A stretch of DNA of 64,000 nt from an uncultured Acidobacteriota bacterium (GCA_963741955.1 CAVUKB010000005.1:160001-224000); one strand, 5' to 3'. Positions 19,869-24,881 are shown, counted from the stretch's first letter. A program made the numbers and translations. Notes: generated by a model not told the origin, from the sequence alone.

Positions 19869-20027
19869 GACCCAGCAAGTATAGCGTAGAGGCTGGAGAT
19901 CCGGGCTCGTCGGAGGCCCTGGCTCGGGGTCCGGAAGCGACCGGGACTCGGGGCTCGAGGCTCGAAAAAGGACCGAGGCTCGAGGCTCGGGATTGGAAGC
20001 TCGACAATGGACCGGGGCTCGGAGGCG

Positions 20028-20055
20028 AAAAAAGGCCCCTGATTTCTCAGGGGCC
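20028..20055 (-). terminator. Intrinsic terminator after tRNA-Phe
   Basis: Minus strand GGCCCCTGA-GAAA-TCAGGGGCC-TTTTTT. Confidence 0.85.
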
Positions 20056-20068
20056 AGCGTCATTCGGT

Positions 20069-20144
<76 letters not shown>

Positions 20145-20249
20145 GTGTCCGTTGCCGGGCCGAAGGTCTCCGGCGCTCTCGAGTATCGCCGGGCCGGTTC
20201 GAGCCCCGTGACCGCGCTCTTCAGGACGCGCGATCCGCAGCGGGCGCGG

Positions 20250-20277
20250 ATGATAACACATCCGGCAGACCGGTCAA
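20250..20277 (-). promoter_or_regulatory. Putative sigma70 promoter for tRNA-Phe
   Basis: Minus strand TTGACC-16 nt-TATCAT with extended -10 TG. Confidence 0.65.
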
Positions 20278-20364
20278 TCCCGGTTCCGTTCGTATCTGCT
20301 GAGGGCATGGGATGCCCCGGTTCGGACCCTCCCCCGCTCGAGCTTTCAAAACGGACAGTTTGGA

Positions 20365-20393
20365 TTGACCCCGGCCGCCGCTCAGCTTAGATT
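20365..20393 (+). promoter_or_regulatory. Putative sigma70 promoter upstream of the riboswitch
   Basis: TTGACC-17 nt-TAGATT, about 40 nt before the aptamer. Confidence 0.65.
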
Positions 20394-20435
20394 ATCGGTG
20401 TCGCCGGGGAACTTGGGTGTACCGGCGATGGCTTG

Positions 20436-20562
20436 TCAGCCAAATCCCCGGCGCCGGGGAGCGGGGGACCCAAGCGGAGACGGCTTGCCACCGTCCGGGG
20501 TGAATCCGGCCAGAAGCCGGTAGGGTTTCCAGCCCGAATCCGACAGCTAACCTCGTAGGCAA
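20436..20562 (+). promoter_or_regulatory. ydaO/yuaA (cyclic di-AMP) riboswitch aptamer
   Basis: All hallmark blocks in order: AATCC...GAGCGGGGGACCCA...GACGG/CCGTC stem...GGGGTGAATCC...GTAGGG...CCCGAATCCGACAGCTAACCTCGTAGGC. Confidence 0.92.
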
Positions 20563-20578
20563 CCGGATGGCAAGTCCG

Positions 20579-20616
20579 CAAACGCCGCGCAGATTTGCGC
20601 GGCGTTTGTCCTTTCC
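20579..20616 (+). terminator. Terminator-like hairpin after the riboswitch (possibly bidirectional)
   Basis: 13-bp perfect stem CAAACGCCGCGCA-GATT-TGCGCGGCGTTTG followed by a weak TCCTTTCC tail. Confidence 0.7.
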
Positions 20617-20776
20617 GGCCCTCCCTGCAGGACGATCGTTTCCGGCCCACGGGCAAATCGCTCTGCACAACGGTTCGTCGCGCAGAATATTCTGCAACAG
20701 GTCGTCTCGGCAGAATAAAATTCCGTACAGACGCCTTGACACAGAATAATCGACTGCGCGGAAAGCTGCCACAGGC

Positions 20777-21652
20777 TCAGCTGACCCGATCCCGCACCAT
20801 CGACGCGATCTCCCGCAGATGTTTCGCCGCGCCGCCGAGAAATGCAATCGCGTCGAGCGAAGTATCGATCAGCTCTTCGGTGAGCTGGCGCGCTCCCTCC
20901 ACGCCGGCGAGCTTGACGAACGTCAGCTTCTGCTCATCCTTCCCGACGTCTTTTCCCAGCTGCTCGGGTGTCGAGGTGACGTCGAGGATGTCGTCCGTGA
21001 TCTGGAACGCGAGTCCGAGGTTCTTCGCGTATTGCTCGATTGCGCGGATGCCGCCGGTCGGAGCGTTTGCGAGCATCGCACCGGTCACCGCGGCGGCGCC
21101 GAAGAGCGCACCCGTCTTGCGCGAGTGGATGTATTCGAGGGTGCCGAAATCGAGAGAGGCCGCCTCGCTGTGGAGGTCCACCGCCTCTCCTCCGATCGTC
21201 CCGTCCCAACCGACCGCCTGCACTACCCCGTCGAGGACCTTCCGGAGCGGCCACCGTCGTGGATTCACGGCAGCGTGATTGTCGGCGATGAGCCCGTACG
21301 CGTGGTTGAGAAGCGCGACCGCCGCGAGGATCGCCAGATCCTCTCCCACCGCACGGTGCAGAGCCGGCAAGCCGCGCCGCAACTCGGCGTCGTCCATTGC
21401 CGGGAGGTCGTCCAGCACCAGGGAACAGGTATGGATCATCTCGAACGCACACGCGGCGTCGAGAAGTTTTTCCGGCCGTACGCCCCACGTCTCACCCACC
21501 GCGAGGGTCAGGACTCCACGAAATCGTTTCCCCGGGGTGCTCAGTGCGCGCTGGAGCGGTTCACGAAGTGGATCCGGGCTGACGGCGCGGTCGAGCACCG
21601 CGGCGAGCCGGCGGTCCACGAGAGCTCTCTGGGCGTTGAAGTAGTCGTTCAA
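20777..21652 (-). CDS. Short-chain polyprenyl (FPP/GGPP) synthase, IspA/CrtE-like; start uncertain
   Basis: [48 protein letters not shown]. Confidence 0.92.
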
Positions 21653-21692
21653 GATCAGTCCGATTATGGTAGCATCCGAATCCGGCAAGTCT

Positions 21693-24600
21693 ATGAAGAA
21701 TCGGCTCTTGTACGGTAGGTCCCTACTCCTTCTGTGGATCGCGTGGCTGCTTTTTTTCTCGATCCTTCTCGCGATCCTCACGCCGGTGTCAGGCGGCCGT
21801 TTCTGGGCCGTAGTCGGCGTCGCGGCGCTCTCCACCTTCGTGGTCATCGCGAGAGTCTGGTACAAGCCTCTCGGCGTGCGTCTCGGTGAAGACAGCGTCA
21901 CTCCGGTACTGAATCAGATCACCGCCGGAGATCTGACGATCCGCACTGACGAGATCCGCGCAAAGATCTCCTCGAAGGAGCTCTCGGGCTCGATCCGGGC
22001 ACTTCTGCTCAACCTGGAACGGACGATCACCCGTTTCTCCCAGCTCGTCTCCGACGTCACCACCGCCGGCGACCAGATCAGCCGGAGGGCTCGTGCCCTT
22101 TCGATGACCGCCGGCGAGCAACTCTCCTCCACCCAATCGACGTCTCAGTCCCTCGAGCAGATCGACGCGTCGATCAAGAGCGTCGGGAAGAGCATGGAGA
22201 ATCTCTCGCTGAACGCCGAGGAAACGTCGACCTCGGTGCTGGAGATGTCCGCCTCGATCCAGGAGGTGACCCGAATCGGCGAGAACCTCTCCGAATACGT
22301 AGAGCAGACCGCGTCGGCGATCGAAGAGATGATCGCGTCGATCAACGAAGTGGCGACCAACACCGAGAGCTTCTCGTCGTTCGCGACCGAGACCGCCAGC
22401 TCGATGATCGAGATGAACACCACCACCCAGGAGATCGCCAAGTCGGCGCAGCAGTCCTCGGATCTTGCCCGCTACGTCATGGACTCCGCCGGCGAAGGGC
22501 TCGAGTCGGTCCTCGGTACGGTGGAAGGAATGCGCAAGATCCAGGGCTCGGTCGATGAGTCGAAGAACGCCCTGATGCAGCTCGCCGAACGATCCGCGGA
22601 GATTGGTGAGATCGTGCGGGTGATCGATGAGATCGCCGGACAGACCAACCTCCTCGCGTTGAACGCGGCGATCATCGCCGCGCAGGCCGGCGAGCGGGGA
22701 AAGGGATTCGCCGTCGTCGCCGACGAGATCCGCGATCTCTCCGAGCGCACCTCCGTCTCCACGGAAGAGATCCGGACCCTGATCAGCAACGTTCAGCGCG
22801 GGGTCGACCGCGCGATCGAGCAGATGAACGTCAGCTCCGAGCACGTGAACGAAGGAGTCGGTCTCACCTCCCGCGCAGAGACCGTACTGACCAAGATCCG
22901 GGACCTGATCGAGCGATCCACCCAGTCGATCTCGGAGATCGCCCGCGCCACGGAAGAACAGATGCGCGGCAGCGAGAGCACCACCCAGGCGATCGAAGAA
23001 GTGACCAAGATGGTGCAGCAGATGGCAGCCGCCACCCAGCAGCAGTCCATCACATCACTGAAGATCGGGCAGCAGACCTCGGTCGTGCGCGACTACATGA
23101 AACACCTGCAGCGCGCGATGGAAGAACAGGAGAGCGGAAGCAAGTCCATCGGCTCGGCGATGGAAAACGTGATGAGTGCGGTGAGCATGGTGCTCGAGTC
23201 CACATCGATCCTCGCGAACGAGAGCGCCGCCGTGGTCTCCTCGATGGCGGTGATCGAACGGGGTGCGCGAGAGAGCAACTTCGGCGTGGCGGACCTCAGC
23301 CAGATGGCCAACACGCTCCGCCACGAGTCGTCGCTCCTCCAGCAGGAGCTTCAACGCTTCCAGCTTCCCTCCGCCGCTCAGGGAGGACGGGTGGTCACCG
23401 CGACCGTCATCCCCCAGCTCACTCTCGACCCGGTCTACGCCCAGTTCATGGCTCTCAGCTACGTCCAGAAGGCCATCCACGAAAACCTGGTGCTCTTCGG
23501 AGAAGGCGCAGAGCTGGTTCCCGGCCTCGCCGAGCGGTGGGAGGTCCTCGATCATGGAACGGTCTACCGCTTCCACCTTCGCCCCGATGCCCGGTTCCAC
23601 AACGGACGTAGCGTCACCGCGAAAGACGTGAAGGAAACCTTCCTTCGCCTGCTCTCCCCGCAGATCAACTCCAGCGGGAAATGGATCATGCGTTTCGTCT
23701 CCGGAGCCGATGCGGTGATCGATGGAAAAGCGAGCGACGCGGCCGGATTCAGGGTGGTCAGCGATCGAACGATCGAGATCGTTCTCGAAGAGCCGCTCGC
23801 TTTCTTTCTGCTCCTCCTCTCGATGCCCGAGGCGGCCATCGTTCCGATTGAGGAAGCCCGGGATGCCGCCCGGTTCCGCACCCATCCGGTGGGCGCCGGG
23901 CCGTTCCGGGTGGACGAGGTCAGAGAAGGTGAGTTCGTACGTCTGGCCCGCAATCCGTCCTACTTCAGACCCAATATCCCGCACGTGGACGAGCTCGAAT
24001 TCCGTCTCGATCTGAAGAGCGCCAAAGATGTAGCGAACGCCTTCTTCGCCGGCGATCTCGACATCGCTCACGGAGTTCCTCTCCCGGTCGTAAAGGAGAT
24101 TCGCGAAGACCCCCAGCGTGCGCCCTATCTCCGCGACACGATCATGCTTCACACTTCATACCTCGGGTGGGACAATTCCGTCGCTCCCTTCGACCGCGTG
24201 GAAGTGCGACAGGCAGTGAGTCATGCGATCAACAGGAACCGGCTGAACGAGAACATCTTCTCCGGGCTGGGAATGATCGCGGAGTCCCTCCTCCCGCCCG
24301 GGCTTCCGGGGTACGACCCGAACCGGAAGGGCTACCAGTACGATCCGGAGCGCGCACGCGCGCTGCTGCGGAAAGGAGGATTCCCTTCCGGCTTCTCGAT
24401 CGACTACTGGAGATGGGATACGGACGAGTTCTACAACTCCGGCCTCATGGATCTGATCGTCGAGGATCTCGCCGCCATCGGGATCCGGGTCAACGTCACT
24501 CTTCACGACGCGAAGGAAGCGAGAAGCGCACAGCTCGCGCCCGGGCACAAGCGAATCTTCGCCGCCAACTGGTATGCCGATTTCCCCGATTCCGACAACT

Positions 24601-24881
24601 TCTTCTTCATCTTCTTCCATTCGGAATCGGAAGTCCTGAAGGGCCTCGGATACGGCAGCGCGGAGATCGACGGGCAGATCGAGCGGGCACGCCGGACCAA
24701 CGATCCGGAGGAGAGGGTGCAGATCTATCGTACGCTCGACGAGAAGATCCTCCAGGATTCTCCGATCTCGTATCTGTTCCACGACCGGCTGTTCGTGCTG
24801 CACAAGCCGGAAGTCCGCGGTCTGAGGACGTACCTCGCGCCGCCCCCGGTGCGCTATCACGACGTCTGGCTCGAACGCTGA
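21693..24881 (+). CDS. Methyl-accepting chemotaxis protein fused to a C-terminal family-5 solute-binding domain
   Basis: 2 N-terminal TM, HAMP-like segment, [36 protein letters not shown] hairpin; then LDP...PGLAERW...FHNG..VTA.DV, GAGPF, W.ADFPD. Confidence 0.9.

Follow-up and report, generated by a model that had tools for sequence, protein, structure and literature searches.

In the Bacillus subtilis prototype of the ydaO/kimA class of riboswitches, transcription terminates upon binding of the ligand c-di-AMP, which is cyclic diadenosine monophosphate (PMC9960051). The usual partners of c-di-AMP riboswitches are transporters of K+, osmolytes and amino acids, and cell-wall enzymes (PMC7266159, PMC9960051). 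Riboswitches can also govern antisense RNAs. For example, the AspocR RNA of Listeria is a short transcript when its ligand is present and a long antisense RNA when the ligand is absent, and the long form has been demonstrated (PMC8079631). The subject here is a c-di-AMP aptamer in a 64,000-nucleotide (nt) stretch of DNA from an uncultured Acidobacteriota bacterium (GCA_963741955.1, CAVUKB010000005.1:160001-224000), referred to as the window, along which all positions are counted. The aptamer has a predicted promoter and a predicted terminator of its own, and it points at the 3' end of ispA, an IspA-like polyprenyl synthetase gene on the opposite strand. A first-pass annotation took it for an orphan riboswitch aimed antisense at this gene, with a short RNA that acts alone as the fallback. 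It is the fallback that the comparative data favor. We assign a probability of roughly 0.5 to the reading that this is an autonomous gene for a c-di-AMP-binding RNA of ~215 nt, which acts in trans and whose orientation to its neighbors is incidental.

The aptamer lies at 20428-20575 on the plus strand and matches the Rfam family RF00379 over the entire model (positions 1-134 of 134) with 77.1 bits (E 3.7e-16), the gathering score being 38 bits; the near-consensus ydaO aptamer reported in the first pass thus stands. A scan of the 5.4-Mb genome (completeness 99%) returned this one copy of RF00379 and no second. The genome belongs to a family within the class Thermoanaerobaculia (as judged by record titles), and all of its relatives are uncultured metagenome-assembled genomes (MAGs). 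Among 24 other family members sampled at first, 20 had an RF00379 match, as did one of 16 genomes from the same class outside the family. Across the whole family, the aptamer is present in 100 of 124 genomes, including 73 of the 84 that are of high quality, and in 35 of 40 genera. The scores of the relatives fall between 68 and 85 bits across all genomic contexts. There is one copy per genome, except in G001, which has two. A single copy per genome across 100 of 124 family genomes is a distribution like that of an RNA gene. These genome counts, and those of the receptor-homologue searches described below, include the unpublished genomes G022, G030, G061, G107 and G108; no conclusion rests on unpublished genomes alone.

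Comparison of the aptamer with its relatives defines a fold with several additional parts. Immediately 5' of the aptamer is a hairpin, P0 (20401-20428, plus strand), in which TCGCCGG (20401-20407) pairs with CCGGCGA (20422-20428). The hairpin had been noticed in the first pass, and it covaries in relatives, with three of five pairs changed on both sides and 92.3% of cells paired. An extra outer helix closes the aptamer, with the 5' strand GGCTTGTCA (20430-20438, plus strand) pairing with the 3' strand TGGCAAGTC (20568-20576, plus strand). Eight pairs of this helix can be followed in relatives, with 96% of cells paired and two pairs changed on both sides; the family consensus is GGCUUGCC with GGCAGGCC, and the window has GGCUUGUCA with UGGCAAGUC. 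P1 and the pseudoknot's 3' strand both lie inside this helix. In the first-pass annotation, TGGCAAG at 20568-20574 was proposed to form an alternative to the aptamer fold by pairing either with CTTGTCA in front of the core or with an inner CTTGCCA. The pairing with CTTGTCA (20432-20438) does form, but covariation shows that it is the outer closing helix of the aptamer and not an alternative to it. The pairing with the inner copy found no support in covariation: the covarying changes track the 5' copy (pair 44-201 is U-A in L017 and L021), and the inner copy is invariant and shows none. L017, which comes from the unpublished genome G022, is one of the 22 aligned rows on which these comparisons are based; L021, with the same U-A change, is public.

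The inner CTTGCCA is part of a lineage-specific hairpin, GACGG-CTTGCCA-CCGTC (20479-20495, plus strand), that is an insertion relative to the Rfam model and is identical in 22 of 22 aligned relatives. A 26-nt motif spanning this hairpin occurs in 97 stretches of a species-representative collection; among the 80 matches listed, almost all are MAGs of Thermoanaerobaculia or Acidobacteriota, and one is labelled Planctomycetota. The pseudoknot would join the hairpin loop TTTCC (20526-20530, plus strand) to GGAT at 20565-20568. In the family, the loop is CUUCC and the tail GGAAG, with 90.8% of cells paired in 22 sequences; in the window there is one U.U mismatch, and three of four pairs form. By analogy with the crystallized sequence in PMC5393176, the pseudoknot would occupy the canonical ydaO-type position. 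Over all 62 modelled pairs in the 22 sequences, 97.5% of cells are paired, versus 93.4% in shuffles. Sixteen pairs are changed on both sides, a number reached in none of 500 shuffles, and slid controls pair at 31.9-48.9%. The pattern of change is that of a genuine aptamer under selection. The first-pass annotation named a diadenylate cyclase as the enzyme to look for in the genome, and its domain, PF02457, is present with 139.9 bits as a single occurrence. The ligand can therefore be made, and c-di-AMP is probably what the RNA binds.

Both ends of the RNA gene can be predicted. A sigma-70-type promoter, TTGACC-17-TAGATT, lies at 20365-20393 on the plus strand, where it had been annotated, and matches the consensus at nine of 12 positions. 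It is one of two promoter-like sites in the interval 19900-22100, for which shuffles give 0.2 +/- 0.5, and transcription would start near 20400. By the same criteria, a promoter is present at the equivalent position in 74 of 98 family loci (82 with a looser pattern), most commonly in the form TTGACA-16-TACACT. The 13-bp terminator-like stem described earlier at 20579-20608 is also there, and its arms (20579-20591 and 20596-20608, 13 nt each) are 100% complementary, with a 4-nt loop and GTCCTTTCC following. The complete element, an intrinsic terminator that spans 20579-20617 and is assigned to neither strand, combines the 13-bp stem with a preceding A-tract and a following T-tract (CAAACGCCGCGCA GATT TGCGCGGCGTTTG TCCTTTCC). 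A simple terminator scan missed it, finding too few T beyond the full stem and counting three T within the stem. Because of the two flanking tracts, the terminator is usable in both directions, and it probably works in both. In the family, the stem has 12-13 bp, begins 6-10 nt past the outer helix, and is conserved and covarying, with compensatory variants in L040 and L050.

From promoter to T-tract, the element forms a cassette of ~250 bp. An alignment of 22 loci is conserved from the -35 box to the T-tract, and column identity, taken as the mean over 96 loci for each segment, follows the same boundaries. It is highest for the aptamer plus outer helix (0.92) and the terminator (0.86), lower for the 5' hairpin (0.75) and the promoter (0.66), and 0.40 on both flanks, before the -35 box as well as past the terminator. 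The promoter also has a 9-nt -35 context, GGATTGACC, in common with the promoter of the neighboring tRNA-Phe gene, the two copies forming an inverted repeat 81 nt apart. Taken with the 5' hairpin and the terminator, this shared context fits a stable, well-expressed RNA. An invertible element was considered and rejected, as no inverted repeats bracket the cassette within 20140-20790; the sole flanking pair is that of the two -35 regions.

A cis-acting switch would couple the aptamer to a terminator and an antiterminator that exclude each other. The terminator shares no strand with P1 or with the pseudoknot strand, and in all 94 relatives folded at full length the probability that it pairs is no lower than 0.99. 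Eighty transcripts were folded at equilibrium after being cut just before the 3' strand of the terminator; no consistent partner of the 5' strand was found among these cut folds, the shares of six regions being 0.18, 0.17, 0.12, 0.11, 0.06 and 0.02. This modelling argues for constitutive termination.

What surrounds the cassette varies. The context set comprises 98 oriented loci from 97 genomes, with three unpublished genomes omitted and L017 kept. In 59 loci, the cassette is followed by a gene with CarboxypepD_reg, Plug and beta-barrel domains, which resembles a TonB receptor. In 17 loci, L017 among them, the next genes are the RNase III gene rnc and an M23 peptidase gene, in that order, with tRNA-Phe interposed in some cases. 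Twelve loci from 10 genera have the cassette convergent on ispA, as in the window, eight have other neighbors, and two are too short to class. The other neighbors, named by eye from N-terminal sequence, are CbrC-like (there the receptor gene lies upstream and is divergent), VWA-like, Arr-like and small CarboxypepD-like open reading frames (ORFs), and tRNA-Phe. Eighty metagenome contigs, an independent set of DNA sequences no shorter than 1 kb that report on context but not on transcript ends, gave 38 receptor, three rnc, nine ispA-convergent and eight other loci, with 22 too short. In 56 of 98 loci, a tRNA-Phe gene is no more than 900 nt away from the cassette; it can be on either side and can point either way. 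The rnc-type order is a gene for a methyl-accepting chemotaxis protein (MCP) in reverse orientation, ispA, the cassette, tRNA-Phe and rnc, and the window has this same order with the cassette alone inverted. Contexts differ even inside single genera (g54 and g46).

Two individual genomes deserve mention. In G001, the cassettes are L008 and L023, one convergent on ispA and one before a TonB-receptor-like gene; contamination of this MAG is 3%, and the two cassettes may reflect a mixed bin. In the outlier L004, from a genome of another family of the class (G036), the aptamer precedes an ORF that resembles a Kup-type K+ transporter (from the N-terminus, by eye), which is the textbook arrangement for a c-di-AMP riboswitch.

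The variety of contexts bears directly on the first-pass proposal that the element is aimed at ispA. Under that proposal, transcription would stop at 20608-20617 when c-di-AMP is high and would read through when it is low, and antisense RNA over 20777-21652 would lower prenyl-diphosphate synthesis and might extend into the MCP and EamA cluster beyond. The ispA gene occupies exactly these positions on the minus strand (PF00348, 168.7 bits; its TTG start at 21652 was assigned by reading the sequence). The terminator and the stop codon of ispA are 170 nt apart, close to the ~165 nt first given, and the aptamer does point at the gene's 3' end. The convergent layout also recurs, in the 12 loci noted above and in nine of 80 metagenome contigs, and the aptamer is intact in all 12. 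In addition, the class prototype is an OFF switch that works by termination (PMC9960051), and AspocR is a precedent for an antisense RNA under riboswitch control (PMC8079631). Yet only a minority of loci have the cassette, otherwise identical, arranged in this way. The ispA-convergent layout is one of at least five contexts, and its geometry equals the rnc-facing form with the cassette flipped. The gaps between terminator stem and ispA stop codon in the 12 loci are 2, 12, 16, 18, 26, 41, 45, 68, 68, 170 (the window), 211 and 301 nt, and no conserved sequence was found in them. In seven of the 12, the hairpin lies within 45 nt of the stop codon, as expected for a shared terminator; it is the sole candidate terminator for ispA in most ispA-convergent loci. 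In L019, a tRNA-Phe gene sits between the two. The terminator is very stable, and the folds gave no conserved antiterminator. The divergent MCP/ispA pair, with its short spacing, is kept where the cassette points away (for example in L016, L021 and L100), so the MCP cluster is independent of read-through from the cassette and must have a promoter of its own, a further departure from the original proposal. Ligand-controlled antisense transcription is thus an unlikely account of the locus, and ispA is best described as a neighbor of the RNA gene and at most a putative target.

The description of the riboswitch as an orphan fares better. The genome has just this one copy, and no co-directional gene that is conserved comes after it, in line with the earlier statement that no credible sense gene follows; it is the assignment of ispA as a target that lacks support. 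A 60-amino-acid (aa) ORF at 20567-20749 on the plus strand, the only one after the aptamer, was considered as a sense gene and rejected, since it has no Pfam match and its ATG is present in one of 22 aligned relatives. The next co-directional gene lies ~1.05 kb past the aptamer, beyond the convergent ispA.

The most frequent context raises a second alternative, namely that the cassette elsewhere is a cis riboswitch that uses termination and read-through to regulate the TonB-receptor-like gene or, alternatively, the rnc-M23 operon. The window would then hold an orphaned copy: the receptor gene was lost, the cassette was inverted, and the remnant has no target and is kept by inertia or as a terminator for ispA. 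The same gene family after the cassette in 59 of 98 loci speaks for this account, and the M23 peptidase gene after rnc fits as well, cell-wall enzymes being typical targets of c-di-AMP riboswitches (PMC9960051). Searches for a receptor homologue at E <= 1e-90 found none in eight of the 12 ispA-convergent genomes. The window genome is among these eight, the best identity to the receptor gene there being 32%, and such a loss is again in keeping with an orphaned switch. The cassette persists without the receptor gene. However, an inert remnant should decay, and in the 12 convergent loci from 10 genera the promoter, the 5' hairpin, the aptamer and the terminator are all intact, with column identities of 0.90 in the aptamer and 0.80 in the terminator and scores of 70.8-82 bits.

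The receptor-type loci themselves also speak to cis control. A consensus -35/-10 promoter is present in only three of 59 spacers, which favors a gene that depends on the cassette. Against this, 44 of 59 loci, where 6.1 are expected, have an extended -10 motif, TGNTANNNT, no more than 150 nt past the terminator and at a median distance of 47.5 nt, so the receptor gene appears to come with a promoter of its own. In the other contexts, the motif is found past the terminator in none of 15 rnc-type loci, none of 12 ispA-type loci and one of eight other loci. The distance from the end of the aptamer to the start of receptor-gene homology is long and variable, ranging from 157 to 977 nt, and L022 has the receptor gene upstream and divergent, the cassette being turned around with respect to it. 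An ordinary gene right after the aptamer in relatives had been foreseen in the first pass as a sign against the antisense proposal. Such a gene is there in 59 of 98 loci, but in 44 of those 59 the extended -10 motif intervenes after the terminator. Overall, an orphaned cis switch appears improbable.

The leaders of the receptor genes have features of their own. Conserved blocks ~20-300 nt past the terminator (in L009, L018, L020 and others) include GTTCACC..TTTACA, the extended -10 in the form TGNTA(A/G)(A/G)(C/G)T (the 44 of 59 noted above), the inverted repeat GATTCAA...TTGAATC together with a GGAAC-containing sequence, and the ribosome-binding site GAAAGGAG. The leader may be a separate regulatory element. 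In L025-L031, where the receptor gene is apart from the cassette and the genes are only 51-57% identical, the leaders showed no evident similarity past the ribosome-binding site. No remnant of the leader was seen by eye in the window at 20618-20776.

How would an autonomous RNA work? The sigma-70-type promoter would drive a transcript from ~20400 to ~20615 that consists of the 5' hairpin, a full aptamer locked by the outer helix of 8-9 bp, the invariant hairpin GACGG-CUUGCCA-CCGUC and the terminator. The terminated RNA would be the product; it would bind c-di-AMP and work in trans. In the favored mode, it would be a ligand-sensing riboregulator or a protein-binding RNA, with the invariant hairpin as effector surface. 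In a second mode, it would be a buffer, or "sponge", for c-di-AMP. In the window, the cassette would have been inverted within the rearrangement-prone interval of ispA, tRNA-Phe and rnc, and its symmetric terminator would then serve ispA too. A broader claim, that the family keeps one free-standing RNA receptor for c-di-AMP, either as a ligand-gated riboregulator or protein partner acting through the invariant hairpin or as a buffer, is more tentative and falls somewhat short of even odds.

The sponge is a sub-case that takes up a small part of the probability given to the autonomous RNA. It supposes that a stable, strongly transcribed aptamer RNA with no partner sequesters c-di-AMP and thereby damps swings in the free messenger. 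An aptamer pre-organized by its outer closing helix, a strong predicted promoter and stabilizing ends would all suit such a role, as would the status of the RNA as the sole riboswitch of its class in a genome with one cyclase. Two c-di-AMP are bound per RNA in solved structures (PMC5393176), and the lack of a base-pairing target for the 11-mer at the hairpin top, described below, points the same way. On the other hand, a sponge does not account for the invariance of the inserted hairpin, which is peripheral and lies outside the Rfam core, among 22 of 22 relatives, and a narrow literature search found no precedent for a second-messenger sponge RNA. We consider this sub-case unlikely on its own.

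What weighs against an autonomous, trans-acting RNA? First, the transcription start, the 3' end and the efficiency of termination are predictions from sequence alone. Second, equilibrium folds may miss a kinetic antiterminator, and the near-invariant sequence of the terminator could equally mean a regulated platform. Third, the shared downstream gene family in 59 of 98 loci could be a true cis link and not inherited synteny; consensus promoters are scarce in the receptor-type spacers (three of 59), and the extended -10 is a pattern match, not a mapped start. Fourth, a quick ispA tree in which the context classes are interleaved is weak at its deep nodes, and the ispA-convergent form may have a single origin. 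Fifth, 11 of 84 high-quality family genomes have no match, so the RNA is either dispensable or sometimes unassembled. Finally, no trans target has emerged: in a search of the whole genome for the complement of the top of the invariant hairpin, an 11-mer, the one occurrence (6.8 expected) was the antisense strand of the hairpin itself.

The remaining features of the locus can be stated briefly. Divergent from the RNA gene is tRNA-Phe (GAA), at 20072-20144 on the minus strand, with its own promoter at 20277-20250 (minus strand). This promoter, TTGACC-16-TATCAT with a TG, is divergent from that of the RNA gene, the pair spanning 20250-20393. The minus-strand order upstream of the RNA gene is tRNA-Phe, rnc and the M23 peptidase gene. 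On the other side, the spacer that separates the terminator from the stop codon of ispA (20618-20776, no strand assigned) is non-conserved, with a column identity of 0.40 over 96 loci; at 20682-20751 it holds repeats, namely the palindrome GCAGAATATTCTGC and three copies of CAGAATA. The next plus-strand gene, as first annotated, is an MCP fused to a solute-binding protein. It corresponds to an ORF of 1071 aa at 21666-24881 on the plus strand with the Pfam domains MCPsignal and SBP_bac_5, for which an alternative start at 21693 was read as likelier. The MCP signalling domain (residues 266-449) precedes the family-5 solute-binding domain (616-987), which is the opposite of the usual order of sensor and then signalling domain. 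Homologues of this ORF, with 32-57% identity in the N-terminal part, are divergent to ispA in many relatives.

Other observations concern the surroundings of the cassette in relatives. Short tandem or inverted arrays with units of 7-8 nt flank the cassette or the tRNA gene in L003, L010, L012, L002, L019 and L016; for example, ATTCTGC is repeated six times in L003, and arrays of GAATTGA form a long hairpin in L010. In L016, ~380-410 nt past the aptamer start and upstream of a complete tRNA-Phe gene, there is a minus-strand fragment that by eye resembles the 3' half of tRNA-Phe. Such a fragment may have been left behind when DNA integrated or was rearranged at this tRNA. In the rnc-type loci L014, L017 and L002, a TATACT box lies ~10-20 nt before the rnc start codon (by eye), which suggests that the rnc leader is very short or absent there.

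Several comparisons with the literature put these findings in perspective. The term "orphan riboswitch" is used in print for riboswitches whose ligand is unknown, not for riboswitches without a gene. In the literature searched, with supplementary gene-association tables outside the scope, no c-di-AMP riboswitch RNA was found that acts beyond the next gene. Nor did the search find published work on Thermoanaerobaculia riboswitches or an association of a c-di-AMP riboswitch with a TonB-receptor-like gene, and the combination of c-di-AMP riboswitch and Acidobacteria returned only papers that look unrelated by title and abstract.

What are the implications of a free-standing RNA? First, if the autonomous RNA is real, it would be the first stand-alone c-di-AMP RNA of its kind, and RNA receptors for second messengers could have outputs besides control of the next gene. 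Second, the c-di-AMP aptamer here behaves like a gene: it is kept in single copy in ~100 species, has its own predicted promoter and terminator, and is freely flipped and given new neighbors. Third, the reading, if correct, provides a defined RNA of ~215 nt with which to look for trans targets, protein partners or the buffering of an essential and toxic messenger. Fourth, there is a caution for annotation. A gene that adjoins a riboswitch or lies antisense to it need not be its target, and comparative context should be consulted before an excludon is proposed.

How does the window element compare with known systems? It resembles the canonical ydaO/kimA class in its full-length RF00379 match at twice the gathering score, its core helices and its pseudoknot, and in the intrinsic terminator that follows the aptamer, as in the Bacillus subtilis prototype (PMC9960051). 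It differs from that class in that it is not in the leader of any gene and adds the outer helix, the 5' hairpin and the invariant inserted hairpin. Its terminator is clear of P1 and the pseudoknot strand, and the folds gave no antiterminator. The cassette occurs once per genome in the family with varying neighbors and orientation, and the usual partners named in PMC7266159 and PMC9960051 include neither TonB-type receptors nor RNase III.

Closer in their output are riboswitches whose terminated transcript is itself functional. For example, SreA and SreB of Listeria monocytogenes, which carry S-adenosylmethionine (SAM) riboswitches, are terminated transcripts of ~200-230 nt that function in trans (PMC8079631), and the terminated transcript of a SAM-I riboswitch in Desulfovibrio vulgaris is a functional small RNA (bioRxiv 10.1101/803072). 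Unlike the window RNA, these also act in cis on an operon downstream, and they have known trans targets; the window RNA has no downstream gene, and its ligand is a second messenger. AspocR, a B12 riboswitch RNA antisense to pocR, shares with the window the arrangement of a riboswitch and terminator pointing into a gene on the opposite strand (PMC8079631). In the window, however, this geometry is one of several for the same cassette, the sequence downstream is unconserved, and read-through is hypothetical. Rli55, or EutX, offers a fourth comparison, being a B12 riboswitch within a non-coding RNA that has its own promoter and acts on a partner in trans by sequestering EutV (PMC8079631). The effector part of Rli55, the ANTAR site, comes past the riboswitch terminator, and it is produced only in the absence of ligand (PMC8079631). 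In the window, nothing is conserved past the terminator, so any effector surface must lie within the aptamer RNA itself.

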